Virus record (IMG/VR): IMGVR_UViG_3300027906_000005
Direction: 5' to 3' (one strand)
From: an uncultured virus (IMG/VR IMGVR_UViG_3300027906_000005)
Lineage: Duplodnaviria > Heunggongvirae > Uroviricota > Caudoviricetes
DNA length: 64,000 bases
The notes beneath the pieces are model-generated. The model was not told the origin of the DNA. It saw only the letters and a program-made list of their open reading frames with translations, and ran no database searches. The translations under genes were made by a program, and so were the position numbers. Below are positions 3,207-52,100 of this stretch, piece by piece. Numbering within the stretch: the stretch's first letter is position 1; the number at the start of each line of letters is the position of its first letter.

Positions 3207-3234
3207 TTCTTTATTCGCCTCGTCCCTGAAAACT

Positions 3235-30421: not shown

Positions 30422-32271
30422 TGGCATTTAACCAGATCAACGCTCTTGAATTCAACGAAATCAAGGCACAGATAAGAGACTATATGAAGGCACAGTCGCA
30501 ATTTAGCGATTATGACTTCGAGGGATCCTCTTTGACAGTTCTTTTGGACGTTTTAGCGTATAATACTTACTATACTTCGGTTAATGCCAACCTTACAGTT
30601 AATGAAGGGTTCCTTGAAACTGCTGTTTTACGTGAAAATGTTGTAAAGCTAGCACGGATGATTGGTTATACACCTAAATCTGCTCGTTCTGCACAGACAG
30701 TTGTTAATATAAGTGTTCAAACTGCATTCCCATACCCTAAGACAGTTACAATTGTTGCAGGATTGGTACTAAACTTCACTGGATTAGATAATAATAACTT
30801 TGTTTTCTCGGTTCCAGTCGATACTACACAGAGTGTAGACAGTACAACAGGTATTGCAGCCTTTAATAACCTATCTTTGTATGAAGGAATCTTCCTTGAA
30901 GACACTTTTGTACGTAATTCTTCTACAAGACAACGTTTCATCCTTACAAATAAGGATGCAGACACCTCTATTATGTCAGTTGAGGTCACTTCTGGAACTG
31001 TCACAGAGAAATATCTACAAGCAACAGACATTACTAAGATTGATTCTACCTCAAAGATCTTTTTCCTTGAAGAATCTGAGTATGAGGTACCAGAAATCCT
31101 CTTTGGAGACGATGTTTTAGGTAAAGATCTTAATGATGGTGACGTTATTACCGTTAGATATACCACATCAAGTGGATCTGGCGCAAATGGACTTAAAGTT
31201 TTTGATAATATTGGCAATTACCTAGACAATGTTGGTAATACAATCAGTACTGGCATCACAATTAGTGCTGTAACCTACCCAGATGGAGGTGCTTTACCAG
31301 AAACTACTGAATCTATCAAGTTTTCTGCACCGAAATTCTATTCTGCATTCGGTAGAGCAGTTTCTACTCGTGATTATGAAGCAATTATTCCTCAAATCTA
31401 CCCTAACGTATCGTCAATTGCGTGTTATGGTGGTGAAGAGGCATCTCCACCTGAATATGGTAAGGTATTTTTGGCAATCAAACCAAAAAATGCTGATAAA
31501 TTATCACTTTCAGAGAAAAATGTTATTCTAAAGAAGCTTAGAGACTACTCTGTAGCGGCAATTCAGCCTTCAATCATTGATCCATCGATACTTTACATCG
31601 ATTTGGACAGTTTTGTTTACTTTAACCCCAATAATACTCGCAGAGAACCTTCCGAAATTAAAAATGTAGTGCTTGCAGCACTAACTGCGCTTAATACAGG
31701 TGCAGAATTTAATAAATTTGGTGGAAAATTCAAATTCTCCAAACTTCAGAAGATAATTGATGATTCTGAGGTATCAATTACCTCTAATATCACTCGTGTT
31801 AAGATGAGAAAGAACGTAACAGTCGATTTGAACGCTCGTGTCAACTATAAGATCTGTTACGGTAATAGAATTAACCAACAAACTGATACTCCTGCTGTTA
31901 CTAGTAGCGGATTCAAGATTGTTGGAGATGATCTTAACCAATATTACATGAATGATGATGGTAAAGGTTCATTGCGTCTCTATTACGTAAAGGATACTGG
32001 TGCGTTTGAGTATGTCGATGGTCTATGGGGATCAGTTGATTACACACATGGTGAAATTGTCATTAACGATTTGATTATCCAGTCAACTTCAGTGATTGGA
32101 AACCTATTACAAATATCTGCAATACCTAAGTCCAATGACTTAGTTTCTTTGCGAGAGACCTATCTCACATTAGGCATAGATAATACTGTTGTTAGTGTTG
32201 TAGAAGACACTATCAGTAGTGGTTCAAATCTTTCTGGTACTGGAGTTGTACCAGAGTCAAGCTATAGTTAG
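30421..32271 (+). CDS. gp6: Baseplate wedge subunit gp6
   Basis: F.DYDFEGS.L.VLLDVLAYNTYY, RENVVKLARMIGY.P, RAVS..DYE, PPEYGKV. Confidence 0.95.
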   Translation: MAFNQINALEFNEIKAQIRDYMKAQSQFSDYDFEGSSLTVLLDVLAYNTYYTSVNANLTVNEGFLETAVLRENVVKLARMIGYTPKSARSAQTVVNISVQTAFPYPKTVTIVAGLVLNFTGLDNNNFVFSVPVDTTQSVDSTTGIAAFNNLSLYEGIFLEDTFVRNSSTRQRFILTNKDADTSIMSVEVTSGTVTEKYLQATDITKIDSTSKIFFLEESEYEVPEILFGDDVLGKDLNDGDVITVRYTTSSGSGANGLKVFDNIGNYLDNVGNTISTGITISAVTYPDGGALPETTESIKFSAPKFYSAFGRAVSTRDYEAIIPQIYPNVSSIACYGGEEASPPEYGKVFLAIKPKNADKLSLSEKNVILKKLRDYSVAAIQPSIIDPSILYIDLDSFVYFNPNNTRREPSEIKNVVLAALTALNTGAEFNKFGGKFKFSKLQKIIDDSEVSITSNITRVKMRKNVTVDLNARVNYKICYGNRINQQTDTPAVTSSGFKIVGDDLNQYYMNDDGKGSLRLYYVKDTGAFEYVDGLWGSVDYTHGEIVINDLIIQSTSVIGNLLQISAIPKSNDLVSLRETYLTLGIDNTVVSVVEDTISSGSNLSGTGVVPESSYS

Positions 32272-35200: not shown

Positions 35201-38200
35201 TATGCGGGTGAATATGGATATTTGTACAACCCTAAGAAACTTAGGTACCTTTTAAGAGATAATATTGACAGTAATCTTAATGAGTTGAATCCAACTGGGC
35301 ATTCACCGATTATTGGTTGGGCATATGATGGACACCCCATATATGGACCTTATGGATTTGAAGATCCTGAAAATACTACACCATATAACTCATATAAGTT
35401 GATGGTATCATCTTATAATGTAAAGACCTCTAGAGATGCTCTTCTAAGCGGTCTAACAGACCCTCTAGGGACTTATATTGAAGATTATGAGTATACGGAA
35501 GGATATGGAGATTTAGACCAATATAATGGCAGATTCTGCGTTACTCCAGAATATCCAAATGGAGTTTATGCATATTTCGCTACAATCAAGGGTACTGCGG
35601 GACAACCGAAGTTTCCATACTTTATTGGACCTAATTTCTACTCAGAAGCGAATGCTGTCAACTGGAACGGTAATGGTCTTCAGAAAAACTTTACAGAAGA
35701 CGCAATTCGCTATAGAAAGCCATTTATCGGTACAGATAACATTGTAGCGAAGAGAAAACAGTTAGATAACAAAGTTGACTTCTTCTTAGCACTAGAAGAC
35801 ACCACAACATTGATTGTGATGGAAACTGGAGAGGTTCTATCTTATCTTGAAGATGGAATTGGATACTTCAGCTATTATCCTGTAATTAGAGGTGGTACTG
35901 CAGATTCATTGATCGTTTCCGCAACTAATAAGTATTCTTCCGCTGGAGTTGATCAATATCTTGTAGAAGGTGGCGGTAATGGATATAAAGTCAATGATAG
36001 GCTCTTATTTGATAATACTGGCACTGATGGTGAAGGTGTTAGTGCTACTGTATCCGCAATTACTGGAGAACCAGTTAATACAGTCGCAAGTGTAGTTGAT
36101 GCTAACACAGATGTCTATACTCAGACTATAACCACTTCAGAGAAGCATTATTTGAATGCTGGTGATAATGTTACCGTTTCTTTAACGGATAACCTCTATA
36201 CTAGAGAACTTTCAGCTAAGGTCATAGGTGATAAGTACCATTTCAATTATTTCCAATTATCTGGAAGTGGAAGGATGGATCTAATCAAGGAATATGCTAA
36301 TACAACAGCATATGTCTTAGGTGATCTTATTTACGTTGGTAATAGAGTTTATAAAGCTGCAGAAAGTGGAACTTCTGCATCTACTGCTCCAACACACACA
36401 TCTGGTACTGCAAGTGATGGTTCAATCAATTGGACCTACATGAGAATCCGTACAGACGGTAATTTGGTACAAGGTGGATGGTCAAGTATTACTGGTGGTA
36501 GTAATTACCTTGATGCCACATATTTCGATGTTCCATTATCATCTAATGGATCTGGAATTACTGCTAAAGCAACTATCGTAGTTTCTGGTGGTGCGGTAAC
36601 TACAGTCACTATTACAGATACAGGTTATGGATATAACGTAGGTGACACTATTAGTGCTGCAAATGTCAATTTAGGCAATGCATCATCTCCTGCTGGTTCT
36701 GGATTCACTATTACACTAACTGAAGTCGAAACTGAAGCACAATGCCATACAACTTTGCCACATCAACTCGGAATCGGCGATATAGTCAATATTTCGGGAA
36801 TTTCTCCTTCTGGTTACAATAAAACCGACTATTCCGTTGTTAGAACTGAAACTCTTCGTAGATTTACCGTAAAACGTAATTTTGGAACTATTGCATCTGC
36901 AAATACGACTTCTTCCGAGGTTTATGTCCAAGAACCCAAATTACAACTTATTTCGGGGCACAAATACAAGATTGACACTTCCGATGCAAGTAATGTTGGA
37001 AAAACACTTGCATTTACTTTAGATCCCGCAAATACCGATATTTTCACTTATAAGAACATTACTGATGAAGAAAGGGATCCAATTACGGGTGCTCAGAATT
37101 CTATTACAATTTTCATAAAAGATTTACCTGGAATCTTCTATTACTTCGATATTCAAGGAAATGTTGCTGGAAGTTACTTTACATCCATAAATGATCCTAT
37201 TATTGGAACACAGACAGTTCTAAGTGAGACGGACTTTGCATTTACATATGTAACAGCACTTGCACCCGAAAGTGGATATTCAACAGGCATTAGTTATACT
37301 ACAAACTCAATTTACCCCACAGGGGGAGTTGCAACCATCTCTATAGGAGATCCTGGAAGAAACTACTCATCTCTTCCAAAATTAAGTGGATCTACTAGAT
37401 CTGGATCTGGTGCAGCTGGTGTTGCTACTATTTCAGGTGAATTGTCTAGTGTTTCCATTACAAACGATGGATCTGGATATAATCAAAGTCAACTTCCAAC
37501 AGGAGTTGTATCGTTACCCGATTATGTTGATTTAACACTTACTGGGGTACTTGGATCGTTTATTAAGGATGAAGTTGTAATATCTCAAACAACTCAAGGA
37601 AATCAGACTGCTAGAGGTAGTGTTATTTCTTGGGATCCTACTTCTTCGACAGTAAGAGTTAAACCACTTAAGAATGAAAGAGTGGGTGCTGCTAATAAGG
37701 GATATATTATGTTTAGTAGTGGTAATGCTATTACTAATAAAATCTACAGTTCAGATTCTCAAGCATCTATTAGTGCTGTAAGTGGAACACAAGCTATTGT
37801 TGCTACTACGGTAGACGGTGCTGGTACATTAACTCAAGTTACTGTTACTAACGGTGGTTCTAATTATAGATCTGCTCCAGACATTATATTTGACGATCCT
37901 TACTATGGAACTGTTTCTACAGTTGGAAATATCACTGAATCTGTTGCAAATGCCTTTAATGCAGATACAACAACTACAGGTGTCACTCAAACCTCTATTG
38001 CAGGTTCTAGTGGATCTGGAGCAGAGTTTACAATAGTCACAGATGGTAATGGTGCAATTAGCACAGTTACATGTACTGATGGCGGTAGTTCATATGTACT
38101 AGGTGATACACTAACATTTGACGGTACTAAACTTCCTGGTGGTGCTTCTAACGAAGACTTTGATGTGACAGTTACTACATTGGCACATGCAGACGTAGCT

Positions 38201-41200
38201 TCTATTGGAACAGTATTAGATGCTTATGTAGATACAGTAACCGTTACAAACACTGGATCTGGTTATTTGTCTGCTCCTGACATTTCTGTTAGTGGGGGTC
38301 AGGGTATTAACGCTTCATTCACTGCTGCAATTGCAAATGAGGGAGTTTCCAGTATATCCATTGAATCTGCTGGTCAACAGTTCAGAAGTGCTCCAGTAGT
38401 TAATATTACTCAGAAGAAAGGAACTGGTGCTTCTATATTACTTAAGTCTTCCGATTTGGGTGAGATTCTTAAGATTAGTGGAGATAACATTACTTTCAAC
38501 TATTCTCATGATAGAACTTTAAAACCAGAACTTAATACCACATATAACCTACAATTAACAAGAACTCAAGTTATCGACTACTTTGATGTAGTCAATGGTG
38601 GTGCAAACTTTGTATCTACACCAGAGATAGTTCTTACAGGTGGTAGTGGATCACTATATGATTTAAAGGCAATTATTGAAAATGAAGTTATACAGAGCAT
38701 TCTAGTTGAAAATGCTGGTAGAGGTTTCTTATCTGGTCCTGTAGTCGGTGCCAAGGTAACTCATACATGGGTTGGTCTACAATCTAACCATACATTAAAC
38801 TTCCCATATAACACAAAGATTCCAACTGGAACTAAGGTTTATGTTGATCAGATCACTGGTCAGTTGCCAGCTCCATTAGTTGAGGGTACAGCATACTATG
38901 CAGTAGCAGCTACAACTGGAAATGGATTGGGAGATAACCAACTTAGACTTGCTACATCTCTTGCAAATGCTAATACTGAGACAACTATTACATTTACTAC
39001 TCCTCCTGTTGGTGATGCATTAACTGGACAGACATATTTCACTTTATATACTACTGATCTTGGCGATGTTATCAATGCATACATGAAACCTGCTACTTTC
39101 TCTGTTGGAGAAAGGATTTATCAGGGTGCATCAACAACTTCATATACTGCATACGGTTATGTTAAGAATTGGGATGCTTCAGGTCGTGTTGTTAGTGTTG
39201 AAATCGTAGAAGGTGAATTTAAGGTTGGTGAACCTGTATTTGGTGAAGAGACTGCAGCGTTTGGTCAGATTCATGCATTCGATAGAGCAGATGCAGTATT
39301 TGATGTATCTCCTATCAGTACCTCTGCTACTACATGGGAAAGAACCACTGGTTTCTTAGATCTTAACGAACAGAGACTATATGACAGTGATAGGTATCAG
39401 GAATTCTCATATGATATCTCATCTTCCATTAATATTAATGATTGGAAGAACCCACTCAAGTTTGCTGCTCACCCTGCAGGATTTAAAGTCGTTGGTACAC
39501 AAGTACTATCACAAGGAGTTAAGAAAACATATAGACCTAAGCCATCTGAGAACTTGGCTGCTGGTAATGAGTTTGATTGGTGGGTTCCAGTAACAAATAC
39601 ATTACAAACTACCTTTAACGGTACAACTTATGTTCTACCTAAGCCAACCGCAAAGGCAACTGGTAAACTTTCTCAGATTCAGAACTACTCTCTTGGTAAA
39701 GCAGATTATTCTGCTGCAGTACCTACTGAAGTTCAGATTTATGGTAGGCAACTACTAGACATTCAGAAGATCTTATCTTGTATCTCATATAAGATTGATG
39801 ATATCACTGATAAGAGCATTACGTTCGATGGATCATCATCAAGTATAGTAAGTACCGCTAATAATCAGATTACACTAGCTGCACATGGATTAATTGATAA
39901 TCAGCGTATGATTTATCAAGCTGGTGGTGATAGATTCCAAGATGCTAGAGATCTAATCATTAAGAATATTGATTTCATCGTTGAAGAGACAATTGGTTTC
40001 TTGAATGCTTCATATCCAAGTCTTACATACAACTCTGCTACATGTGCTAGAGATATTAGACTTGTAGTTGCTGCATGGGCAAATGATTTAAGGTATGGTG
40101 GTAACTGGTTTACTTTATCTGCTACCAATCAATATGTTGGTGCTACTGTATCTCAGGGCAATGCATATATTGATGCTGCGAATCTACTGAGAGACAATAT
40201 GAACTTCATTGCTGCTGAAGCAGTGTATAGAATGTTACAAGATGCTACAGTTGGTATTCCAAGTGGTTATCCAGGTGTTCCTGGTCATGATGATAATTGT
40301 ATTGATGACGTTGTTGATGTAATAGAAGCAGTTGCTTATAACTTACGTTATGGTGGTAATAGTGAGGTATGGGATGCTGCAAACTTCTATGTTGATGGTG
40401 TATACTCCAATCCTGCTCCTGTTGATGGCGAAGAAGTCCAAGCGATTTGGACATTCAATAAGGCAAAGGAATTAGCTGCAGATGTTCTTATCAATACTGC
40501 AATTACTGTTCAAGGTAATCACGGTCTTACTCAAGTCACTAATACCAATCCTACTTTCAGTGCTTCTGTATGTGCTACAGTTGACGCTGCAATGGACACT
40601 CTCTTTAATATTGTTACTACTGCTCTTTCTACTAATAGCCTTACTTCCGTAGTTAGAACGAATCCAGCCAATCATATTCAGCATGTTGAGGGTGAAGAGG
40701 CTGAGACCATATATGCATTTAATAAAGCAAGAGACCTTGCATTACTAGCTGTTGTCAATAACTTACCTGCTTATGGTACATATTCAACGACAGCTACGGT
40801 TAAAGATTTAAGTATTACAGAACCCTCAGACAGTTGTGCAAGTGTCACAAGCGCAATCACAACGTTGTCTAAGATCATCACTGATGGTATTGATAACCCA
40901 TCAACATTACCTAATCCAGACACAGGAAACTATCCTAAGACAAGAACAGGAACTCCTCTTGGTGGATTAACTAATGGTGTTGGATATTTCTGCAAATACG
41001 TTGATGCAAACACTATTGAACTTAGAGAAGTTGCTGGTGGTGATGCAATTAACCTATCTGCTGTTGGAACAGGAGTTGGACATACATTTAGAGTATATCA
41101 TGACGGAGTCAATACTCAATTCCCAATAACAACTAATAACACTAAACTTACTACAAAACTTGGTAAGACACCAGATAAAGATCAACTAATGGTCGTTGCT

Positions 41201-44200
41201 AACGGTGTTGTTCAGAATCCTGCGAACTATACTTACTCTAGTGATGTAATAACATTCAATTCTCCTCTTCTTATAGAATCTCAGGTAATTGCAATGTATT
41301 ATGATCGTAAGTCATATACATCCAGTTTCATCCTAGATCAGATTGGTGATGAGGTTAAGAGCTTCGCTACTGGTATAAAGGGAACAGGTACACATACATT
41401 TGTAAGTGGCGTTACTAATGCTATTACAGCGAATGCTGGAGGACCATTTACTGCTGCCTCTGGAACAACCTATAATCCTACTACTGGATTGTTGGTACTA
41501 GAAATTGGATCACATAGTCTTACTACTTCCAATACAATCACTATTGCTGATGGTGGAATTACATTTACTTGTGATGGTGATGCTCATGGATCGAATCATG
41601 CATATCCTCGTTCTTCAGATCCTGTTTCTGGAAAAACACTTGCAGTCACTTCTCCAACTGCCACAAAGATTACAGTTGATGTAGGTAAGTCATTTGATCC
41701 TATTGATGGATTAACAGCAGGATATGGATATACTGATGGAACCTATACTAGCGTTCCTCTTAAGAATAGACTTGGATCTGGTAATGGTGCTACTGCTGAC
41801 ATTACAGTTTCAGGATCTAAAATAACTAATGTTGCTGTAAATACTGCTGGTAATGGATATACAGAGAATGATGTATTAGGTTTATCTGAGATTGGATCAC
41901 AATTAACTCAGAACTATGCTCCTAGCACAGCAACTTATACACCTAGTACAGGTGTACTAGTATTGACCATTGGAGCACATGATATGCTTGCTCCAACCAC
42001 ACATCAAGCTTCTGCTGCTGCATACAACCCAACAACGGGTGAAATGATAGTAACAGTTACTGGTCATGGATTTACTAACGGTGAGAAGGTTAAATTTGCA
42101 GATGACTGCTTAACATTTACATGTACACATGGTGGCGGTAATCACACTTATCCTCGTAGTACTGACCCATTGAGTAGTAAGTGGATTCCTGTATACGATG
42201 TGACTGCTAATACTTTCACTGTACAGGTTCTGGATACTATTCCTTCTACTAATGTCACAGATCATACTTTCGTATCTTGTACTGCTACTGGTATCAGTCA
42301 TGCAAGATCATATGTCAGAATCGCAAATGATGCTTTAATATTCTCATGTACTCATGGTGGCGGTGGTAACCACACATATCCAAGAGCTACAGATCCTATT
42401 GGAAATCTATTTGATACTCCTGTAGATGCTATAGCTGCAACTACTATTACAGTTAATGCCCTTAATGGTACTGCTGCAACTAACACTACTACTCATACTT
42501 GGCAGGGATTAAGTACTTACCAGTATCAACCAACTGAAGTTGTGTATCTACCAGCATCAGGTGATATGGTATGTACAGTTGCTGCTCATGGACTTAATAA
42601 GGGTGATAGAATCAAGTTCACAGAGAATTCTCTAACATTTACATGTACTAAGGATAATAATTTCACTCAGCACACATATCCTCGTGCTTCTGATCCTTCA
42701 GGTGGTGCTTGGTTAACTGTTTCCGAAGTAACTACAAATTCATTCAAAGTTAACGTTGGTAAGAACGAAAGGTTCCAATATACACCTACCAATTCAACTT
42801 ACAATGCTACTACTGGTGATCTAACGTTGACCGTTGGATCTCACAGCATAGCTGCACCTACAGCTCATACAGCAACAGGTGCTGTTTACACTCCTGCTGA
42901 TGGTAAGGTAGTAATTACTATCACTGGTCATGGATTCAGGAATGGTGACTATGTTCTAATTGAAGATAGTTCATTAACATTCACATGTACACATGGTGGT
43001 GGTAATCATTCTTATCCAAGAGCAACTGACCCAATTAGCGGTAAGTTTGTAGAGATCTTTGATGTAACTCCTAACACCTTTACAATTCAGTGTTTAACCA
43101 CTGTTCCATCAACCAATACTACAACTCATACATTTGTTGCCGCTGCTGCTGATGGTATTAAGAAAGCATTAGATGCAGTAACAATTGAAGAGAATGGATT
43201 AGTATTCACTTGTGAAATGGATGATAGAGCTACTAAGCACACTTATCCTAGAAAATCTGATCCTGCTTATAATACTATACTTCCCGTTAAAGCGGTCTCA
43301 GGCAACGTTATTACAGTATTCGTTGGGAAGTCACCAACTGTTAATTACACCCCTACAGGTGCCACATACGATACAACCACAGGCATTATGGAACTGACTA
43401 TCGGTTCTCATAGTCTTGTTTCTGGTCAAAGTATTAAATTGGCAGATGGTGCGGTAACATTCTCTTGTACTCAAGATGGTAATGCTACAAATCATGCTTA
43501 TCCAAGAACATTAACAGATGGATTCAATCTGGATAGTGTTCTGTATAATCCTAATAATGGGGTTATGACAGTTACGTCACCTGCACATGGAATGAACAAT
43601 GGTGACTGGATTAAGTTTAAGAGAGAATCATTAATATTCACATGTGATCTTGATGGTAATACAGCTAAGAAGCAGTATCCAAGATCTACTGATTATGCAG
43701 ATGATAGATGGTTGAAGGTATCAAATGTTACATCGAATGCTTTTGATGTCACTGTTTTAGATACAATTCCTTCTACTAATACTGATAATCATCTATATGT
43801 TGCTCCAACTAAGTTATCTCCACATAATGCAGATTACAACCCAACAACGGGTGTAATGACTGTACAGAATTCAAGATTTAATGTTAGTGATGCTACCTAT
43901 AATCCTACTAGTGGTGACTTAGTTCTATCCATTGGTACACATGATTTAACTACTCTTGATAGTATTAGACTTGCTCCTGAATCATTAACATTCAGTTGTG
44001 GTGCTGCAACAGGTGTTCATACCTTTGTAAGTTCTACTGGAATCACAGGAAGTAACGGATTTAGTGGAACACCAAGTGCTGCTACCTACACACCTTCTAC
44101 AGGTGATTTAACATTCACAGTGGCTGGTAACACAATGACTACAAGTCATACAATTACCTTAGCTGCAAATTGCTTCACATTTACTTGTGATGCTGATAAC

Positions 44201-47200
44201 CATGCCACAAATCATGCTTATCCAAGATTGACCGACCCTGCATATAATACACCACTTGTAATATCAAATGTTAGTGGTAATGATGTAACTATCAACGTTG
44301 GACAATCAATCGCTACTGAGAGTGCATACCCTCGTGCTACTGATTATGCTTACAACTCTACATTACCTATCACAGCAGTTGCTGCTACTAGCATTACTGT
44401 TAATGTGAATGGTGGTGCTGGTGCAATTAGTGTTTCTTCTGCTCATTCCTTCTCTTCAGCAACTACTGGTGCTGTCCTTGCTGGACATGGATTATCAGAT
44501 GGTGATTTCGTCAAGTTTGATGATGAATCCTTACTATTCAGTTGCACACAAGGATTAGGCACATACTCTTATCCTAGACCTGCTCAAGCACAATACACTG
44601 CTGGTGCTGGAACAACTTATAGTCCAACTACAGGTATCCTAAAAGTCACTACAACTGTTAACCATAAGATTAATGTTGGGGATAAGATTAAGTTGGATGA
44701 TGGTGCACTATCCTTTAGTTGTACTGCTGGATCATTCGCACATACTTACACTGGTGGTACTGTAGCAGATGCTGTTACTGTAGTTACCGATAGCAATACT
44801 AAGAAGAGCGTCACTGCTGCCACATACACTCCTGCAACTGGTCTGATAGAATTAACAATTGGATCTCATAGTTATACAACAAGTGATACTATTAAGATCA
44901 CTTCCAACTCTCTATCATTCACTTGTGATGAAGATAGTCATGCGACTACTCACACATATCCTAGAATCACTGATCCAGCATACGAAGCAATTCTACCAAT
45001 CACTGCAGAGACTGCTACTACAATTACAGTTCAAGTTGGTACTGCACAGACTACTGCTGCTACTGCTTATCCAAGATCCACAGACTTTGCTAGTGGTAAA
45101 TGGTTGAGAGTTCTTGCTAAGACTGCTAATACATTTGATGTTAAGGTATTAGATACTATTCCTTCTACAAATATTGCACCTCACACATGGACTGCAGGAG
45201 CAACTAATGGAATCTCATTGAAGGATCCTGCGAGTGGTGCTTTCCTTCCAGTTTCTAACACTGACTTTAATACGTTTACTGTTCAGGTTCTTAATGATAC
45301 ACCTTCTACTAATACAACACCTCATACCTTCATATCTGCTACAGATAACAGTTTGACTATTGCTCCATTTGAGAAGAAGCGTGACCCATTCTATGATACT
45401 TCATTAGAGATCATTGCAACTACTGCTACAACGATTAGTGTTGATGTTTTAACGTCTACTCAAAGTAGCAATACTTACGCACATACCTACGTTTCTGCGC
45501 TAAGTAACTCTGTTATAACGGGGGGTAATTATACTCATAAGTTTGTTACTGCTAATGCTGGTGCAGTTAAAGCAGGAGATAGGCACAGTTTTGTTAGTGC
45601 CACTTCTACAGCTGTCACAAGAGGTATTGTAACTACTGGAGTTTATGCATATGACCAACTTGCTGATGCTGGTAGACTCATACGTGATAACTTAGACTTT
45701 ATTGCAACTACTGCTTATGGCAGAATGATTGCTGCTAATGGATCATTTGTAGTTCCAAGTTATACTAAGTGTATTCGTGATACTAAATTAGTCGTTGATG
45801 CTGTTGCAGATAACGTTGAATTTGGTGGAAATGATGCTACATATGATGCTGCATCATACTATCTTGAAGCACATCTAACTGGTGAAGAAGATCAATCTGT
45901 ACAGGTGTTCAATCATGCTAGAGATATCTGTCGTGAGGTAATGCGTAACATTACGGTTACAACCAACTCCACTACTCTTGGATCTCAGTTTAAGGATCTT
46001 ACAATTACTAATGATAGTGGAAATACTGTTTATGATACTAATGACTGCCAAAATGTCGCTTCTACCATCACAACTCTCTTTAATATTATTACTACTGCTG
46101 TTGGTACTACAAGTGGTGGTGCTGGTAATCTCAATAGCATTACTAGAACTGCGTCAGGTGCTCCTGATTTCCAAATCAAAGTGGGTACTGTAACCTTTGA
46201 TGGTACTGATACAACATTCACAGCTCAGGTTGGTGGATCTACACAGGTATTACCTGCTTCTGATAACTTCTTAATATTCTTGAACAGTACTCTACAGGTT
46301 AAGGGTAGTACTGATTCTTACACATACACTGGTAGTGAATTAACCTTCAATGAAGCACCTCTACCTGGTATGGACTTCTATGGGTTCTACTTCGGTAAGA
46401 TTGAACTTATTGATCCCCTTGCACCATACTTTGACAACAATAAGAAGACCTTCACAATGAAGAAGAATAATGATCCTCTTTCATTAGAATCTGATAGTGC
46501 TTCTGTTATTGCATCTAACAACTTAATTATCTTCCTTAACTCTGTATTCCAGGAACCTGGAGTTGCTTATAACTTAAGAGGTTCTATTATTGAATTCAGT
46601 GAACCACCAAGAGCAGGATCTGAATGTGTCGCATTTATCTTCACTGGATCTGCTGATGACGTTCTAATTGATAAAACATTCAACTCTATTGATCCTGGTG
46701 ATAGATTACAAATTGCTAGTGAAGGAAGCGATCGTTTGATTGCAACAGTTTCTAGTTCTACTACTGTTGACAGTTATGAGTATACTGGATTAAAACCAAC
46801 AACTGCTGAGTTCACTGCAACTCTGGTTAGTGGAAAAATTACTCAAGTTGCTATAACCAGTCCTGGATCTAACTATGAAGTTCCTCCATTCCTTTACTTC
46901 CAAGGTGGTGGTGGAGAAGGTGCATATGCTGAAACAACTATTGAAGTTGGAAGTGGTAAAGTAACTGGGGTTATTAACCTAAATCCAGGTAACGGATATA
47001 CTACAGTTCCAACTGTCCTTCCAGTACATCCTGTACATATTGAAAGGAAGCAAAGAAACAGACTTATATCTGATTCTGAGATGCTTGCAAATACTTACCT
47101 AACTACATCAATTACAGCAGCGTCTACAACTCTGAATTTAACGAATGTCTGGTATGACGTTTCTCAGAAGAATGGATTTGCTGATGAAGGTGAAGTACTT

Positions 47201-47575
47201 ATTCCATATTATGACGCTGGTACCTCAGCATGGACGGTAGAAAGAATTCTCTACGGTGCAAAGAATACATCTGCTAACACTCTTACAGTCGCAACAGGCG
47301 GTAGAGGGTATGGTGGAACTACAGCTTCCGCAATTGCGGTCACAACAGGAACATATAGTTCTAGTGGCACCACATGTACTGTAACTACCTCTGGTGCTCA
47401 TAATTTGGTATCTGGAATGTCTATCTACCTCCAACATACCAGTGGTACTGGATTTGATGGTTCCTACACAGTTTCAGTTACTGGAGCTACTGGATTCACA
47501 GTTCAGTATCCATTCTCCCGCAGTACAAGCGGAAACATCTCACTACTTCCAGAAGTTCGTCTGAGATCATTATAA
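32279..47575 (+). CDS. gp7: Giant baseplate wedge initiator gp7 (5098 aa) with a YHYH-like domain and many repeat modules
   Basis: Lies between gp6 and gp8; F..FVKEYY, KDFY.AKGS..SF..., YQEFSY.I...W......HPAGFK core motifs. Confidence 0.85.
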   Translation: MTNSSWKVSSWTTPTTTVTTTPVPSEVSPESRSQISHNVSGQFASFIQDNYPTFISFVKEYYKSQELKGYCFDIIQNWGDYYNIDAFGGLVTETKLISAVTTSSTTVDVESTRDFPNEGLLLIDDEIIHYQSKGQTLFQTCARGFNAVRGVGEEGDYKSENTVAAAHALGTKVVNLNNIFPLYVLGKFKEQFLATFPKNFAEGVTESTVIKRVKDFYAAKGSTRSFQFVLRTLFGVESEVDYPRDRIFKPSDAYYTSREVIRAVAVSGDPNDLVGQVLYQESDANDPNVAAARIYVKGVVEVFTSSGSIFEIDVDTNNSLGTFVTPYKSMLSSDLGGEVNDQIVTVDSTLGWPEINGRFRIEDEIISYTDKTVTQFLGCSRARENTVNVAHDAGQEVFAAFKIYGYSNVDNSEIQLKVYGGTRGVKLTDGGQYYLPSSKVSTPAAPGFDSIDPVWESFTYNVRRALRGASATLGTTNNDGSVRCTIVTKEPHRLVRDDVIRILNAPEDIYNNQHDVVGIVDETTFEFIFSSRPAQGITGFEFYIAREFAYGTSDYASINNVVKDYTADVQNTYRSDTDVIVASTGVPSHKIGPFGSGDLPPGNQRYLKRIPITPSTKSTKTSTPIGQIGIGSNGVPLFSYKGRDIKKFGGLSSITKNNGGAGYDITNPPTVVFEEDYALNGVYTIYTRVKHNGNRYQAVTSGRTSSTVYPTHTSGIVTLGTVNWQYEGTPASATVSVLGEVIAINVTAGGSGYVTEPIISITGGGASNDNQATGSAQITNGTVTGIIVTNKGSGYTSVPTISISGGSGNGATASAICRGPINTINITDAGSQYTYEPSIKLISGSGAVAYPSILNGKIESIIVTFGGSGYYGAPDVVITGDGVGATAFAQVDLSTNIVTGILVTNKGSGYSAGATSIDIVYPGTGASFQTKLTELTYNEAATYEELGVPASSFTNRKTTDAAGGTTIKGENYLIYAGEYGYLYNPKKLRYLLRDNIDSNLNELNPTGHSPIIGWAYDGHPIYGPYGFEDPENTTPYNSYKLMVSSYNVKTSRDALLSGLTDPLGTYIEDYEYTEGYGDLDQYNGRFCVTPEYPNGVYAYFATIKGTAGQPKFPYFIGPNFYSEANAVNWNGNGLQKNFTEDAIRYRKPFIGTDNIVAKRKQLDNKVDFFLALEDTTTLIVMETGEVLSYLEDGIGYFSYYPVIRGGTADSLIVSATNKYSSAGVDQYLVEGGGNGYKVNDRLLFDNTGTDGEGVSATVSAITGEPVNTVASVVDANTDVYTQTITTSEKHYLNAGDNVTVSLTDNLYTRELSAKVIGDKYHFNYFQLSGSGRMDLIKEYANTTAYVLGDLIYVGNRVYKAAESGTSASTAPTHTSGTASDGSINWTYMRIRTDGNLVQGGWSSITGGSNYLDATYFDVPLSSNGSGITAKATIVVSGGAVTTVTITDTGYGYNVGDTISAANVNLGNASSPAGSGFTITLTEVETEAQCHTTLPHQLGIGDIVNISGISPSGYNKTDYSVVRTETLRRFTVKRNFGTIASANTTSSEVYVQEPKLQLISGHKYKIDTSDASNVGKTLAFTLDPANTDIFTYKNITDEERDPITGAQNSITIFIKDLPGIFYYFDIQGNVAGSYFTSINDPIIGTQTVLSETDFAFTYVTALAPESGYSTGISYTTNSIYPTGGVATISIGDPGRNYSSLPKLSGSTRSGSGAAGVATISGELSSVSITNDGSGYNQSQLPTGVVSLPDYVDLTLTGVLGSFIKDEVVISQTTQGNQTARGSVISWDPTSSTVRVKPLKNERVGAANKGYIMFSSGNAITNKIYSSDSQASISAVSGTQAIVATTVDGAGTLTQVTVTNGGSNYRSAPDIIFDDPYYGTVSTVGNITESVANAFNADTTTTGVTQTSIAGSSGSGAEFTIVTDGNGAISTVTCTDGGSSYVLGDTLTFDGTKLPGGASNEDFDVTVTTLAHADVASIGTVLDAYVDTVTVTNTGSGYLSAPDISVSGGQGINASFTAAIANEGVSSISIESAGQQFRSAPVVNITQKKGTGASILLKSSDLGEILKISGDNITFNYSHDRTLKPELNTTYNLQLTRTQVIDYFDVVNGGANFVSTPEIVLTGGSGSLYDLKAIIENEVIQSILVENAGRGFLSGPVVGAKVTHTWVGLQSNHTLNFPYNTKIPTGTKVYVDQITGQLPAPLVEGTAYYAVAATTGNGLGDNQLRLATSLANANTETTITFTTPPVGDALTGQTYFTLYTTDLGDVINAYMKPATFSVGERIYQGASTTSYTAYGYVKNWDASGRVVSVEIVEGEFKVGEPVFGEETAAFGQIHAFDRADAVFDVSPISTSATTWERTTGFLDLNEQRLYDSDRYQEFSYDISSSININDWKNPLKFAAHPAGFKVVGTQVLSQGVKKTYRPKPSENLAAGNEFDWWVPVTNTLQTTFNGTTYVLPKPTAKATGKLSQIQNYSLGKADYSAAVPTEVQIYGRQLLDIQKILSCISYKIDDITDKSITFDGSSSSIVSTANNQITLAAHGLIDNQRMIYQAGGDRFQDARDLIIKNIDFIVEETIGFLNASYPSLTYNSATCARDIRLVVAAWANDLRYGGNWFTLSATNQYVGATVSQGNAYIDAANLLRDNMNFIAAEAVYRMLQDATVGIPSGYPGVPGHDDNCIDDVVDVIEAVAYNLRYGGNSEVWDAANFYVDGVYSNPAPVDGEEVQAIWTFNKAKELAADVLINTAITVQGNHGLTQVTNTNPTFSASVCATVDAAMDTLFNIVTTALSTNSLTSVVRTNPANHIQHVEGEEAETIYAFNKARDLALLAVVNNLPAYGTYSTTATVKDLSITEPSDSCASVTSAITTLSKIITDGIDNPSTLPNPDTGNYPKTRTGTPLGGLTNGVGYFCKYVDANTIELREVAGGDAINLSAVGTGVGHTFRVYHDGVNTQFPITTNNTKLTTKLGKTPDKDQLMVVANGVVQNPANYTYSSDVITFNSPLLIESQVIAMYYDRKSYTSSFILDQIGDEVKSFATGIKGTGTHTFVSGVTNAITANAGGPFTAASGTTYNPTTGLLVLEIGSHSLTTSNTITIADGGITFTCDGDAHGSNHAYPRSSDPVSGKTLAVTSPTATKITVDVGKSFDPIDGLTAGYGYTDGTYTSVPLKNRLGSGNGATADITVSGSKITNVAVNTAGNGYTENDVLGLSEIGSQLTQNYAPSTATYTPSTGVLVLTIGAHDMLAPTTHQASAAAYNPTTGEMIVTVTGHGFTNGEKVKFADDCLTFTCTHGGGNHTYPRSTDPLSSKWIPVYDVTANTFTVQVLDTIPSTNVTDHTFVSCTATGISHARSYVRIANDALIFSCTHGGGGNHTYPRATDPIGNLFDTPVDAIAATTITVNALNGTAATNTTTHTWQGLSTYQYQPTEVVYLPASGDMVCTVAAHGLNKGDRIKFTENSLTFTCTKDNNFTQHTYPRASDPSGGAWLTVSEVTTNSFKVNVGKNERFQYTPTNSTYNATTGDLTLTVGSHSIAAPTAHTATGAVYTPADGKVVITITGHGFRNGDYVLIEDSSLTFTCTHGGGNHSYPRATDPISGKFVEIFDVTPNTFTIQCLTTVPSTNTTTHTFVAAAADGIKKALDAVTIEENGLVFTCEMDDRATKHTYPRKSDPAYNTILPVKAVSGNVITVFVGKSPTVNYTPTGATYDTTTGIMELTIGSHSLVSGQSIKLADGAVTFSCTQDGNATNHAYPRTLTDGFNLDSVLYNPNNGVMTVTSPAHGMNNGDWIKFKRESLIFTCDLDGNTAKKQYPRSTDYADDRWLKVSNVTSNAFDVTVLDTIPSTNTDNHLYVAPTKLSPHNADYNPTTGVMTVQNSRFNVSDATYNPTSGDLVLSIGTHDLTTLDSIRLAPESLTFSCGAATGVHTFVSSTGITGSNGFSGTPSAATYTPSTGDLTFTVAGNTMTTSHTITLAANCFTFTCDADNHATNHAYPRLTDPAYNTPLVISNVSGNDVTINVGQSIATESAYPRATDYAYNSTLPITAVAATSITVNVNGGAGAISVSSAHSFSSATTGAVLAGHGLSDGDFVKFDDESLLFSCTQGLGTYSYPRPAQAQYTAGAGTTYSPTTGILKVTTTVNHKINVGDKIKLDDGALSFSCTAGSFAHTYTGGTVADAVTVVTDSNTKKSVTAATYTPATGLIELTIGSHSYTTSDTIKITSNSLSFTCDEDSHATTHTYPRITDPAYEAILPITAETATTITVQVGTAQTTAATAYPRSTDFASGKWLRVLAKTANTFDVKVLDTIPSTNIAPHTWTAGATNGISLKDPASGAFLPVSNTDFNTFTVQVLNDTPSTNTTPHTFISATDNSLTIAPFEKKRDPFYDTSLEIIATTATTISVDVLTSTQSSNTYAHTYVSALSNSVITGGNYTHKFVTANAGAVKAGDRHSFVSATSTAVTRGIVTTGVYAYDQLADAGRLIRDNLDFIATTAYGRMIAANGSFVVPSYTKCIRDTKLVVDAVADNVEFGGNDATYDAASYYLEAHLTGEEDQSVQVFNHARDICREVMRNITVTTNSTTLGSQFKDLTITNDSGNTVYDTNDCQNVASTITTLFNIITTAVGTTSGGAGNLNSITRTASGAPDFQIKVGTVTFDGTDTTFTAQVGGSTQVLPASDNFLIFLNSTLQVKGSTDSYTYTGSELTFNEAPLPGMDFYGFYFGKIELIDPLAPYFDNNKKTFTMKKNNDPLSLESDSASVIASNNLIIFLNSVFQEPGVAYNLRGSIIEFSEPPRAGSECVAFIFTGSADDVLIDKTFNSIDPGDRLQIASEGSDRLIATVSSSTTVDSYEYTGLKPTTAEFTATLVSGKITQVAITSPGSNYEVPPFLYFQGGGGEGAYAETTIEVGSGKVTGVINLNPGNGYTTVPTVLPVHPVHIERKQRNRLISDSEMLANTYLTTSITAASTTLNLTNVWYDVSQKNGFADEGEVLIPYYDAGTSAWTVERILYGAKNTSANTLTVATGGRGYGGTTASAIAVTTGTYSSSGTTCTVTTSGAHNLVSGMSIYLQHTSGTGFDGSYTVSVTGATGFTVQYPFSRSTSGNISLLPEVRLRSL
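41380..45620 (+). repeat. Array of 13 diverged ~90-100-aa beta modules (Y.PTTG..IG.H...FTC...H.YPR..DP)
   Basis: 13 YPR motifs counted in the translation; DNA-level similarity, e.g. 42110-42170 versus 42973-43033. Confidence 0.85.
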
Positions 47576-47598: not shown

Positions 47599-49113
47599 AT
47601 GGCATTAGTCACTGACAAATTTAGAATATACGCCGCCGAGAGCTTCAGAGATACTCTGCAAAGTTCAAATAAGGTGTATATGTTCGTCGGTAGGGCGAAA
47701 ACCTGGGGTAGTACAGATGTACCACCAGTAGGTGAACCTATCGATAGCTTTGAGTATGCGAGAGGTGTATACCAAGATTCTGTTGCCTTTAAGCGGGTTG
47801 ATATATCGGATACTGCTCTTGTAGTACCTAGAGTTGATTGGACTGACCCTACTCAGACAACTGGTGGTGTTGGTCGTACATATTCAATGTACAAACCAGA
47901 TTATGCTCCAGCAAAGACAACTGCTAATGGTGCATCTAGGTTATATGATTCAAACTTCTATGTAATGAACTCTGACTTCAATGTGTACAAGTGTTTGTAC
48001 AATGGTCAGGATCCAACCTACCCAAGAGGAAGACCCTCATTGGTAGAACCAACTGGTACATCAACAACTATTATTGAGACCTCAGATAGTCCTGGTAATT
48101 ACTCTTATCGTTGGAAGTACATGTACACCATCGATGCTGATAACATTCTAAAGTTTGTTACATCTGAGTTTATTCCAGTTCTTTCAAATGCTTTAGTAAA
48201 ATCTGCTGCTAACCCAGGTTCAGTTGACACTGTTGTTATTGAAAATGCTGGTGCTGGTTATAACAACGGTACTTATACTAACGTTCCTGTTCGTGGTGAC
48301 TATTCCATTAACGGTGGAACACAAGCACTTTGTACTGTAACTGTTGTTTCTGGTTCTATTTCTGCAGTAACTATTACTCAGGCGGGTGCTGGATACAGTT
48401 TTGCATCTATTGATGTTGCTTTGATCAATAACATTGGTAATGGTACTGGTGCATCTCTTGATGTTGTACTACCACCTAATGCTGGTCATGGTGCTGATGC
48501 TGTAAGAGAATTGGGTGCATATCGTCTTATGTTCACTAGTAAGTTAGAAACTACTAGTGCATTTGTTGATTTCCCTAATGATTTAACATATAGAAGGGTT
48601 GGTATTGTATTAAATCCTTATGATTATAATACAACAACTATCTGTAGTCAGAATACAAGATCTGCTGTTAAAGCAATGATCTTCCCTCAGTCTGGTACTG
48701 GTACTCCAAGTGGTAATTTTGCCCCAGGAGAATCAATAACCCAAGCATCTACAGGTGCTAAAGGATTTGTAGTTTCATACAATGCTACAACTAAGGTACT
48801 GAAGTATTACCAAGATTCAGCTGATGGTGTTGTTGCAGGTAACATAGTTGCATTCTCTGGATCAAATCAGATCACTTCATCACAGAATGCTTACACCGCA
48901 ACTCCTGATGCAACATTTGGTACATCCCAAGTTCCTTTATCACAGATCACTATCGGTGTTTCTGTTTACGAATTAGGTTTATCTTTCACCACTGGTTATG
49001 CCAATGAGGAAATTGAACTAAATTCAGGTGAATTACTTTACATAGATAATAGGATCCCGATCACTCGTTCGGCAGATCAAAACGAAGAGCTCAAAGTAGT
49101 AATTGAATTCTAA
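47599..49113 (+). CDS. gp8: Baseplate wedge subunit gp8
   Basis: YMFVGR...W, VPRVDW, FYVMNSDFNVYKCLYN, Y.WKYMYTI, YIDNR.PITR...Q.EELKVVIEF. Confidence 0.93.
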   Translation: MALVTDKFRIYAAESFRDTLQSSNKVYMFVGRAKTWGSTDVPPVGEPIDSFEYARGVYQDSVAFKRVDISDTALVVPRVDWTDPTQTTGGVGRTYSMYKPDYAPAKTTANGASRLYDSNFYVMNSDFNVYKCLYNGQDPTYPRGRPSLVEPTGTSTTIIETSDSPGNYSYRWKYMYTIDADNILKFVTSEFIPVLSNALVKSAANPGSVDTVVIENAGAGYNNGTYTNVPVRGDYSINGGTQALCTVTVVSGSISAVTITQAGAGYSFASIDVALINNIGNGTGASLDVVLPPNAGHGADAVRELGAYRLMFTSKLETTSAFVDFPNDLTYRRVGIVLNPYDYNTTTICSQNTRSAVKAMIFPQSGTGTPSGNFAPGESITQASTGAKGFVVSYNATTKVLKYYQDSADGVVAGNIVAFSGSNQITSSQNAYTATPDATFGTSQVPLSQITIGVSVYELGLSFTTGYANEEIELNSGELLYIDNRIPITRSADQNEELKVVIEF

Positions 49114-52100
49114 ATGGCACAGAATACAAACCTGAACATAGCTCCTTATTACGACGACTTTGACTCAAGTAAGGGGTTCCTAAAAGTATTGTTCAAGCCT
49201 GGGTACCCAGTACAGGCTAGGGAATTGACAACACTACAAAGTGTTCTCCAGAATCAGATAGATACGTTCGGTCAGGGTGTCTATAAAGAAGGTTCGATGG
49301 TAGTTCCTGGTGGAGTTACTCTGAACAGAGATGTGCCGTGTGTAATCATACAGAATACATATCTAAACTTAGACGTAGAATTATATCGTGCAGCTCTTGA
49401 TGGATTAGTTATTAAAGGTTCAACCTCTGGGGTTCGAGCTCGTGTACTATTCTCAATAAGTGCTACAACTTCTACGAAGAATAATATTACATTTTACTTA
49501 AATTATCTACAGAAAGCAAACGATAATGTCACGTCTACGTTCACTGACGGTGAAACTTTTACTTGTGAAAGTGATATTACTTATGCCTCTACAACTATTG
49601 CTGCTGGAACGCCTATTGCACAGCTCCTGAACTCTTCTGCAAATAGCAGAGGTTCAACTGGTAATATTGGTGCTGGTGTTTACTATGTTAGAGGATACTT
49701 TGTTCCTGTAGCAGAACAGATCCTTATATTGGATCAGTATGGTACCACACCTTCATATAAGGTTGGTCTTAAGGTAGAAGAAAGAATTATAACTGCAGAT
49801 GAGGATGCTACCCTCTATGATAATGCTATAGGTAGCACAAACTTCTCAGCTCCAGGTGCTGATAGATTCAAGATTAATCTAACACTAGTTAAGAAGTTAA
49901 TTACAGATCCTAACTCTGCTGACTTTATTGAATTACTAAGAACTAGTTCTGGTACAATTCAGAAGAAAGTAGAACGTAGTGATTTAGGATTTATTAATGA
50001 AGTTCTTGCTAAGAGAACACAGGAAGAATCTGGAAACTATTATGTCAAGAAATTTTCTATAGATGCAAGGGAAAATCTTGATGATGGATTTAATAATGGT
50101 GTATATGCATCAACTGCTACTACAGGAGATGGGAATTCCCCTTCTGAAGAGAACGTAGCTATTCAATTATCCTCTGGTGTTGCATACGTCAATGGATATA
50201 GAACAGAGAGAATGTCCTCAACATATAAGGACGTTGTAAAACCAAGAACTTTTGACACTGTAGAGAATCAATCGATTGCTACAGATATCGGTAATTATAT
50301 TTTCACCACAAATCAACATCAAGCTCCTACTCTATATGAAACTATAGAATTAAGAGATACCTCAACAGCAACTCCAGGTACTCCTGCAGGTACTGTTATT
50401 GGTAAAGCAAGAGCGATTGATTTTGCATATGAATCTGGTACGAAGAATACTCAGACTACTCTTTATCGTACTAATATTTCAGATACTCAGTTATATACAC
50501 AAATTATTTGCACTGGTAGTGCTACTTGGACAAACGGGAGAAAGGTCTATGGCGCAACATCAGGTGCAACAGGATTCGTACAATCGGGTTCTGGTACTAC
50601 TGGATATCTTTACCAGGTTAATGGTGCTTTCCAAGCGGGAGAAGTCCTAAAGGTCAATGATGCTGCTGGTGCAACTCATGGTACTGTTGCGGCTGGTGGA
50701 GTTAAAAACTATAGTTTCAATGATGTTAAATCTTATGCATTCAGTAGTGGCGGTGGTACTGCTGATGCTGTACTAGACGTTAAGGTAGCTTTACCTGGCT
50801 CTGGTCCTATTCTTTCTAGTGTATCTGGTACAGGTACATCTGCTACAGGTACTATTACAGCAACCCTATCCAATTTCAATACACAATTGAAAATTGGTGA
50901 TGTTATTGAATTCTCAAATAACAATTTGATCCATAAAGCAGAAGTTACTGGTGTTACTAGTGCTTATGTCTTTGCTATCAAGTCTTTAACTTCAAATAAC
51001 ATTGCTAATGGGGCACTTACAAGTCCTGTGGTTAGAACTCGTGGAGAGATTAAGGAAGCAGATAAGAAAGAACTCATTACACCTCTTGGTTTCAATTCAG
51101 TAAAGAATACCAATAAGGATAACACACAGAATCCTGCAGGATACTTCAGAACTGCTATTACTGGTATATCAGTAAGTGGTGGAGCTGCTACTGTTGACGT
51201 AGGTTCAGGTTTTACACTAAGAGATGCAGATAATGGTAAGGACTTCAGAGTTATTGTTACTTCTGGTACTGGTGATGGTGATGTATTAGAAGAAGGCGAT
51301 TTCGCTACAGGTAGTCCATCACAGAATACACAGAGTGTTTCACTAACGGGTCTTTGTGGCGGTGGTAGTGGAACTATAGATGTTGTTGCAACAATATACA
51401 GTTCTAATAGATCTGCAAAAGCTAAGACCACTGAAAGGATGAAGATCCTTAAACTTGACAAAACTACTACAAGTGGTAGTCCTAATGGTTTAACTACAGC
51501 TAATCCAGGTAATGCATATAGAGTAAATGATGATCGCATCTCTCTTGGTACTGGTGATGTATTTGCTATTAAGGCAATCTACGAATCAAAAGATGGTAAC
51601 GACCCAGTAATTCCTAATTTCCAATATACTAATTTACTTGGTACTATTGGTATTGATGAGGTTATAACTGGAGATGATTCTGGTTCTAGGGCAAGAGTTG
51701 TATCAACTACAAGTAATTACGTTTATTATATTCCTATAGATGGTGATGTATTCAGTAATGGTGAAACTATAACTGGACCAAATTCTACCTTTAAAATTAC
51801 CTCAGGTAGTATTAATGAAGGATCTAATGATATAACTTCTAGTTTTGATCTTGATGATGGTCAGAGAGATCAGTTCTATGACTATTCAACTATTGTTAGA
51901 AAGTCTGGTTTCACAGCACCAACACATAGAGTCTTTGTTATCTTTGATAGATGGTTAACAACATCTGGTATTAGTCCATATACTGTAGACTCATATTCAA
52001 CTTCAGAATATAAGATCATTCCAAGGTACAATAAGAAGGCACTTAGGGATTGTATTGACTTTAGACCAATTGTAACTCAACAGTTATCCAATAGTGGATC

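Follow-up and report, generated by a model that had tools for sequence, protein, structure and literature searches.

Do the repeats of a giant phage structural protein follow one another in tandem, or do they sit inside one another? This study was concerned with that question in a window of 64,000 nucleotides from an uncultured virus (IMG/VR record IMGVR_UViG_3300027906_000005). A single uninterrupted frame on the plus strand of the window (32279-47575, 15.3 kb) encodes a protein of 5098 amino acids (aa) and holds an array of repeated modules. Judged by profile match and gene order, this protein is a homologue of the gp7 baseplate wedge protein of T4-like cyanophages (cyanomyoviruses). The array region, 41380-45620 of the window, corresponds to aa 3034-4448. 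A preliminary description of the window had proposed that complete copies of the module interrupt other copies. In our analysis this nesting is confirmed and its interpretation as domain insertion is supported. The chain encodes barrels within loops of barrels; because copies sit inside the loops of other copies, a tree-like fold is expected, and the connectivity of the domains should be a tree and not beads on a string. We assign a probability of roughly 85% to the reading in which gp7 carries 13 barrel modules, six of them split by insertion in three loops, whose halves reunite to give a branched connectivity tree.

The module array and its nesting

A hidden Markov model (HMM) of 80 positions was built from the seven uninterrupted copies in the window and run on the 5098-aa protein with all filters off. 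It gave 21 stretches, 20 of them in aa 3062-4393 and one weak stretch at 1442-1461 (independent E-value, i-E, 0.2). The array consists of 13 copies of a module of about 80 aa, seven contiguous and six split, with i-E values between 7.6e-37 and 2e-40 for the contiguous ones. All parts lie on the plus strand and are given below by window position, residues and HMM match.

The first copy, M1 (41462..41698, aa 3062-3140; HMM 3062-3139, profile 2-79, i-E 7.6e-37), is contiguous. M2 begins with an N-part that contains strands A1-A2 (41921..41992, aa 3215-3238; HMM 3217-3236, profile 2-21, i-E 5e-6), is interrupted by the contiguous copy M3 (42014..42283, aa 3246-3335; HMM 3246-3322, i-E 2e-40) and resumes in its C-part (42302..42478, aa 3342-3400; HMM 3335-3396, profile 15-77, i-E 1.7e-14). 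The contiguous copy M4 (42530..42769, aa 3418-3497; HMM 3419-3496, i-E 3.3e-40) is followed by the M5 N-part (42785..42856, aa 3503-3526; HMM 3505-3525, profile 2-22), by the contiguous M6 inserted in M5 (42875..43153, aa 3533-3625; HMM 3533-3610, i-E 1.4e-37) and by the M5 C-part (43166..43342, aa 3630-3688; HMM 3619-3685, profile 13-78, i-E 3e-21).

The remaining copies are enclosed in M7, at level 1. Its N-part ends at Y-P-R (43352..43507, aa 3692-3743; HMM 3693-3744, profile 1-52, i-E 8.2e-20) and its C-part lies about 620 residues past the N-part (45377..45478, aa 4367-4400; HMM 4350-4393, profile 35-78, i-E 8.9e-6). The first child of M7 is the contiguous M8 (43529..43807, aa 3751-3843; HMM 3753-3831, i-E 6.4e-40). 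The second is M9, at level 2, which is divided into an N-part (43823..43873, aa 3849-3865), a middle part (44477..44578, aa 4067-4100; HMM 4067-4102, profile 16-53, i-E 2.4e-9) and a C-part (45218..45328, aa 4314-4350; HMM 4315-4340, profile 53-78, i-E 1.7e-5). The M9 N-part, with 13-17 residues, is the weakest element of the array (HMM 3851-3863, profile 3-15, i-E 0.02), and its motif is kept in orthologues. The first gap of M9 holds M10, at level 3, with its N-part (43883..44014, aa 3869-3912; HMM 3871-3916, profile 2-49, i-E 1.7e-12), the contiguous level-4 copy M11 inserted in it (44075..44314, aa 3933-4012; HMM 3934-4011, i-E 9.1e-38) and its C-part (44321..44428, aa 4015-4050; HMM 4012-4043, profile 44-75, i-E 2.7e-10). 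The second gap holds M12, also at level 3, with its N-part (44606..44743, aa 4110-4155; HMM 4111-4158, profile 2-50, i-E 1e-10), the contiguous level-4 copy M13 (44810..45046, aa 4178-4256; HMM 4179-4256, i-E 1.4e-37) and its C-part (45053..45193, aa 4259-4305; HMM 4259-4295, profile 44-80, i-E 7.5e-13).

The profile coordinates of the fragments are complementary and properly nested, flanking full copies, in all six split modules. The resulting bracket map is M1; M2[M3]; M4; M5[M6]; M7[M8, M9[M10[M11], M12[M13]]], and the four levels are M7 > M9 > M10 or M12 > M11 or M13. Each split copy, when rejoined by these coordinates, aligns over the whole profile and keeps Y5, G10, C38, Y-P-R and D54. 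The HMM built from uninterrupted copies thus bears out what had been noticed earlier, namely that the copies are nested and not simply tandem and that the nesting reaches four levels. All breakpoints listed in the preliminary description were reproduced as well: when the frame was translated, each fell on the motif named for it. One point can be added to that description: the uninterrupted copy at ~43530-43810 (M8), which it named, also lies within M7, as the first of its children.

Misassembly is a risk with repeats, and the source of the window is uncultured, which raises the question of whether the giant ORF or its internal order is an artefact of assembly or annotation of repetitive DNA. 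We regard the chance of this as negligible. The frame runs for 15.3 kb without interruption. The copies are only 28-59% identical as protein, and the DNA repeats found are no longer than 80 nt and no more than 84% identical to the reference copy, so there is little to misassemble. In addition, an independent IMG/VR contig carries a 99.6% identical segment. Lastly, patterns of N-part, full copy and C-part were also found in the giant proteins of the cultured phages P-HM2, P-SSM4 and P-RSM4.

Insertion in the array uses three sites. Site 1, after the A hairpin (profile ~16-23), is used by M2, M5 and the first gap of M9; site 2, directly before Y-P-R (profile ~44-48), is used by M10 and M12; and site 3, between Y-P-R and D-P (profile ~52-55), is used by M7 and the second gap of M9. 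The breaks in 121 giant proteins of the family number 165 at profile positions 16-27 (peak 20-23), 86 at 40-51 (peak 44-47) and 80 at 52-55. The earlier suggestion that several loops tolerate insertion therefore holds family-wide, with breaks clustering at ~20-23, ~44-48 and ~52-55.

As read from the sequence, every insert brings an extra H-x-F/Y strand, which follows the child at sites 1 and 3 and precedes it at site 2. The strand pair flanking M6 falls in the inner structural unit of the model described below (fold-match range 28-132). These strands may form a two-stranded stalk that draws the ends of the child together. H-x-F-V strands are also seen at 41390-41426, 43124-43160, 45533-45569 and 45581-45617, that is, before M1, after M6 and as three consecutive strands past the final closing fragment. 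Those three may close a larger structure that encloses the whole array.

The module is all-beta, with the strand order A1-A2, B1-B2, C, D1-D2, and its conserved positions are Y5, G10, H19, C38, Y-P-R at 49-51 and D-P at 54-55. Conservation was computed on 1115 unique full modules. G10, C38 and P50 are present in 100% of these, H19 and Y49 in 97%, Y5 in 96%, D54 in 95%, R51 in 94% and D41 in 86%, while position 47 is H in 68% and K in 27%. The invariant single Cys together with a near-invariant His and Asp would be compatible with a metal site, and equally with a buried core.

Evidence for pairing of the separated halves

Whether the separated halves belong together, or each half goes with its linear neighbour, had been set beforehand as the test of the nested interpretation. 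Columns 17 (G) and 71 (I) covary within contiguous modules, with an odds ratio of 11.7 (n=1286), and the N- and C-side columns of contiguous copies covary strongly in general, defining two subclasses. In split modules, column 17 of the N-part and column 71 of the distant C-part give an odds ratio of 23.3 (p 1e-29, n=294 unique), whereas column 17 of the enclosed neighbour and column 71 of the C-part that follows it give an odds ratio of 0.5. In covariation, each half goes with its distant partner and not with the copy between them.

A within-protein partner test, which controls for lineage, utilized a 12-pair coupling score for which contiguous copies served as the training set. In 157 of 284 split modules (86 proteins) the unique best partner was the assigned distant C-part, compared with 86 expected. 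This C-part outscored the protein's other C-parts in 85% of cases, by a mean margin of 7.5 bits. For the pairings in the window, the giant protein itself was left out of the training. Own halves score +0.6 to +5.7 bits there, and pairings across the subclasses, which are {M2,M5,M7,M10} versus {M9,M12}, score -6.8 to -23.7. For example, the M7 N-part scores +2.7 bits with its own C-part and -10.8 with the M9 C-part, and the M10 N-part scores -23.7 with the M12 C-part. The C-part of M7 is of the same subclass as its N-part, and the C-part of M9 is of the same subclass as its N-part and middle part.

The pair M5[M6] was modelled with AlphaFold2 (AF2) as 191 aa, from an alignment of 27 homologous nested pairs that are 39-75% identical to the window pair. 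The mean predicted local distance difference test score (pLDDT) was 92.1 and the predicted template modelling score (pTM) 0.85, and all five models had a mean pLDDT of 91-92. The outer N hairpin, which is the M5 N-part, was predicted at pLDDT 93-97 and the M5 C-part at 85-98. The outer strands of the model (6-10, 15-19, 134-135, 142-145, 154-157, 169-175, 178-182) mirror the inner ones (35-39, 44-48, 59-62, 67-71, 77-80, 91-93, 101-105). Also, independent BFVD models of other cyanophage proteins with 40-74% identity superpose on the entire M5[M6] pair (29 matches at E <= 0.001). The best of these is an S-SSM7 'baseplate wedge initiator' (template modelling score, TM, 0.92, root-mean-square deviation, rmsd, 2.0 A, 194 columns, 40% identity).

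Fold searches with the M5[M6] model aligned residues 28-132 only, which is the inner unit and is wider than the 80-residue module. The best matches were phi92 endosialidase (4hiz_A, chain residues 256-340; Z 7.7, rmsd 2.2 A, 80 aligned) and the FCCH domain of the E1 enzyme Uba1 (Z 7.6-7.7, with 9mc4_A at Z 7.7 and 4p22_B at Z 7.6), together with mouse FCCH (2v31, Z 6.2), over 76-77 residues. The next matches were FNR-type FAD-binding barrels and phage tail decoration domains at Z 5-6. Foldseek returned Uba1 chains at a probability of 0.9-0.99, but at E 0.012 or weaker. Since Z values below 8 fall in a range that possibly reflects only a common arrangement, the likeness to FCCH and endosialidase is taken as 'works like' and not as membership. 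In the model, the inner module M6 is predicted to be a small closed beta-barrel.

Sequence profiles gave no assignment above cut-off for the module. Pfam on the seven single modules had TIG as its best match (E 0.01), and E1_FCCH (PF16190) matched one of the seven at 12.1 bits against a gathering score of 29.5 (E 0.21). Precomputed PF16190 matches are present on some homologues, and an Atlas cluster of viral proteins is automatically named E1_FCCH (score 0.90). A profile of the seven window modules against PDB sequences gave chance-level matches only, of which Syo1/symportin was at E 0.08.

The same results bear on an alternative in which a half-module joins the copy next to it in the chain, through strand exchange or circular permutation; the N hairpin, for example, would extend the barrel of the enclosed copy. 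In its favor, the linker strands beside the insert belong to the inner unit, the fold matches over 28-132 exceed the 80-residue module, and the phase of repeats in tandem arrays is generally ambiguous. However, the enclosed copy is complete, has the canonical strand order and by itself is matched by single-domain barrels (2v31 is one), which leaves no need for another hairpin. The contrast in odds ratio between the enclosed neighbour and the distant N-part also speaks against it, as do the wrong-neighbour class pairings in the window, which score -10 to -24 bits. We therefore consider folding with linear neighbours to be very unlikely and retain the pairing of distant halves.

Variation among orthologues and across the family

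Insertion points were compared across orthologues, as the preliminary description had proposed, and the parent M10 was found uninterrupted in several of them. In five IMG/VR loci (L005-L009, 59-64% identity over the nest) M10 is contiguous, and an alignment gap of ~92 columns between its F-S-C and A-Y-P-R motifs corresponds to the linker and M11, which is absent there. In L011 (44% identity) M10 is likewise contiguous, M12[M13] is also missing, and M9 has a single insert. The orthologues form a series from M7[M8,M9[M10]] (L011) through M7[M8,M9[M10,M12[M13]]] (L005-L009) to the window. The bracket maps of 13 close homologues differ only in the contents of the loops. For example, P0006 has a nested pair as the insert of M5, and P0003 has three items in the second gap of M9.

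For a parse of the whole family, an HMM from the 1115 unique full copies was applied to the 121 giant homologues. It identified 1365 full copies, 516 opened modules, 471 continuing fragments and 306 closed split modules. Among the continuing fragments, 331 of 471 continue exactly the module at the top of the stack, compared with 171 +/- 8.7 in shuffled order (maximum 205 in 200 shuffles). Stack parsers miss very short fragments, and unclosed modules inflate the depth, so the depth counts for the family are unreliable.

The distribution of the array was also examined. By tblastn it occurs in 324 phage records, all of them cyanophage or marine virus and none above 60% identity; no module match was found outside such records in that search, and megablast of the region against phage records gave no match. 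In a 5.8-billion set, 561 giant proteins match. Among 1.84 billion cluster representatives (50% identity), a profile search identified 680 proteins at E <= 0.001, of which 507 reach 1e-10 and 204 reach 1e-30. Nesting recurs over hundreds of cyanophage giant proteins, at the three loop sites. There are 27 aligned examples of the site-1 nested pair, down to 39% identity, and site-2 nested pairs in the proteins of other phages reach 60% identity to M10[M11]. Both kinds of pair are old, conserved units in themselves.

Some related sequences show further arrangements. The nearest related record has a second giant frame (G001:C1:5472-8618, 3918 aa) with six full copies and three partial ones (profile 18-65, 14-52 and 1-28); since this frame also carries the module, nesting is not confined to gp7 in the lineage. 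In three loci (L017:601-1173, L018 and L019) the outer module of a nested pair continues past Y-P-R and D-P, and a helical domain that contains Cys then takes the place of the D strands. This would be either a different domain at site 3 or a truncated module.

Several observations weigh against the nested reading and are gathered here. First, the family parse leaves loose ends. Of the 471 continuing fragments, 105 are orphans and 35 run across a different open module, and of the 516 opened modules, 210 never close; this is due partly to undetectably short fragments and is partly unexplained. Such unclosed modules are exemplified by L020:259-861, L021 and L023, where two full copies come after an N-part and no closing fragment was seen in the stretch examined. 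Secondly, the coupling score is blind to the partner within a subclass; the M5 N-part, for example, scores 7.5 bits with the M10 C-part and 2.4 with its own. The sequences in the coupling tests are mutually related, and because of this kinship the p-values overstate their independence. Third, AlphaFold of the segments, which had been suggested as a check on whether the halves reunite, was confident for M5[M6] but poor for the four-level segment of 756 residues (pLDDT 60.8, pTM 0.45, 7 sequences). Foldseek with that model gave nothing meaningful (best E 1.8e-3, TM < 0.1). A complex prediction of the M7 halves (aa 3690-3747 with aa 4361-4414, 7-row alignments), run without controls, scored 0.29 against a mark of 0.32 and counts neither way. 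We infer contact in three dimensions between the distant halves. Fourth, a recent self-duplication behind M11 was sought in the gene and none was found; its best match is M13 at 48%, and with no long DNA repeat there is no trace of recent self-insertion. The difference in M11 between orthologues may reflect loss or recombination and not de novo insertion, because site-2 pairs occur elsewhere and M11 has no close paralogue. Lastly, none of the evidence bears directly on function.

The growth of the array by repeated self-insertion, as originally proposed, must be read in this light. It fits the differences between orthologues, which may have arisen by gain or by loss. The tree would have been remodelled in evolution through gain, loss or exchange of whole modules.

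The unclosed modules, the orphan fragments and the loci with two full copies after an N-part would also suit an ordinary tandem array with decayed copies, in which the short N-parts and truncated C-parts are relics or partial units and the nested look results from deletions. By reasoning, A [ABCD] BCD is obtainable from three tandem copies through two deletions. However, the fragments complement each other in their coordinates, and a last-in-first-out order is much more frequent among them than after shuffling. The halves keep every invariant residue, and their conservation between orthologues is about that of whole copies: between the window and orthologues they are 50-86% identical, except for the 17-residue M9 N-part at 29-76% (whole copies, 75-91%). 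Since they are conserved in this way, the split halves are not decaying relics. In addition, coupling within the domain is retained between distant halves, the same module is contiguous at the same place in orthologues, and the outer N hairpin is predicted with high pLDDT. Tandem decay is thus an unlikely explanation, and insertion of modules into modules is preferred.

Setting, proposed working and known parallels

The identity of the giant ORF was based on its N-terminus and its neighbours. Its aa 25-590 match phrog_2885, 'baseplate wedge subunit', at E 0 on profile positions 2-571. The Pfam family Baseplate_wedge (PF23786) remained below its gathering score in this ORF (21.7 bits versus 27, E 1.5e-4, aa 207-247 only), and precomputed PF23786 matches are present on several homologues. 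Upstream lies gp6 (30421-32271; PF21379, phrog_219) and downstream gp8 (47599-49113; PF09215, phrog_438). The gene order gp6 - gp7 - gp8 is the same in Prochlorococcus phage P-HM2, where the syntenic gene is annotated gp7.

Other features were observed in and near the giant protein. A YHYH domain (PF14240, E 2.6e-26) lies at 35204-35590 of the window (aa 976-1104) and is common to most homologues. A helical region just upstream of the array (40142-40360, aa 2622-2694) has a weak match to the Pfam family Phycobilisome (PF00502; E 0.0037, 17.7 bits against a cut-off of 22.2), and precomputed PF00502 matches occur on several giant homologues; a helical domain of phycobiliprotein type would be a curious find in the baseplate protein of a cyanophage. 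The comparable helical stretch downstream of the array (~45620-46300) has no Pfam match. The ORF next to gp8 (49114-55803, 2229 aa) contains DUF4815 (E 8.2e-63), and its counterpart is annotated 'VrlC protein' in P-HM2 and P-SSM4.

In the virion, the separated halves would reunite into barrels, and each child would be held on its parent by two adjacent linker strands. The array would then be a compact, rigid, branched bush of barrels that projects from the periphery of the baseplate, not a flexible chain of beads, and the N-terminus of gp7 would serve as the anchor of this branched body on the baseplate. It is possible, as a speculative and tentative proposal, that the barrels are surface-binding units for the host envelope and that adhesion is tuned, in valency and geometry, by the way the tree branches. 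A broader and more doubtful proposal is that the module is an insertion-tolerant barrel that acts as a recursive building block, forming branched trees in baseplate and fibre proteins whose topology varies between close phages as a new axis of diversification. If true, host-adhesion structures would diversify as their domain architecture is rearranged, rather than through point mutations or exchanged tip domains.

These results matter mainly to specialists in protein evolution and phage structure. The family provides a natural series of hundreds of variants for the study of loops that tolerate insertion, of split domains that fold from parts ~600 residues apart and of a branched rigid scaffold on the baseplate. 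The proteins come from T4-like phages of Prochlorococcus and Synechococcus, which are abundant, and their role is probably in host contact. There is also a consequence for annotation, as Pfam has no family for the module. Because profile searches report split copies as partial matches, repeat counts and domain maps of the giant structural proteins of cyanophages will be wrong unless nesting is allowed.

The giant ORF can be compared with several known systems. T4 gp7 has about 1,000 aa; the likeness to it lies in the N-terminal ~590 aa, which match the baseplate wedge profile, and in the position of the gene between gp6 and gp8. Anchoring of this kind to the baseplate was proposed for the giant gp7 fusions of cyanomyoviruses by Sullivan et al. 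2005 (PMC1079782).

The module has its best fold matches in the phi92 endosialidase barrel (4hiz) and the FCCH domain of E1 (Uba1/UBA6). The endosialidase barrel sits within a propeller and has sialic acid as its ligand. FCCH resembles the module in being an inserted barrel too, but neither FCCH nor the endosialidase barrel is known to be self-nested. As an accessory domain, FCCH is connected to its host domains through two loops (PMC9378703).

Domain insertion is common and, to our knowledge, recursive insertion of one type of domain into itself is rare. According to the preliminary description, this architecture is not known to have been described for cyanophage gp7, and no description of the module or its nesting in cyanophage gp7 was found in the open-access and bioRxiv literature. 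Self-nesting of a small beta domain is already known, however, with the Si3 insertion of the cyanobacterial RNA polymerase beta' subunit as the only solved parallel documented. Si3 comprises eight sandwich-barrel hybrid motifs (SBHM), of which SBHM-2 to -5 are formed from distant parts of the chain and SBHM-1, -6, -7 and -8 are continuous (PMC10895346). Si3 is like the gp7 array in that one small beta domain is repeated in one chain and not simply in tandem, and its solved self-nesting is of comparable depth. RNA polymerase (SBHM) chains were absent among the 50 fold matches listed; the two are compared by architecture, and a shared fold is neither implied nor excluded. Si3 lies in the trigger loop of RNA polymerase, whereas the array lies in a virion baseplate protein. 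The gp7 array also differs from Si3 in using three distinct loops, in having sibling inserts (a parent with two children) and in varying between close orthologues. The novelty of the gp7 case lies in the domain family, in the setting in a virion, in the use of three insertion loops together with sibling inserts, and in how orthologues vary.

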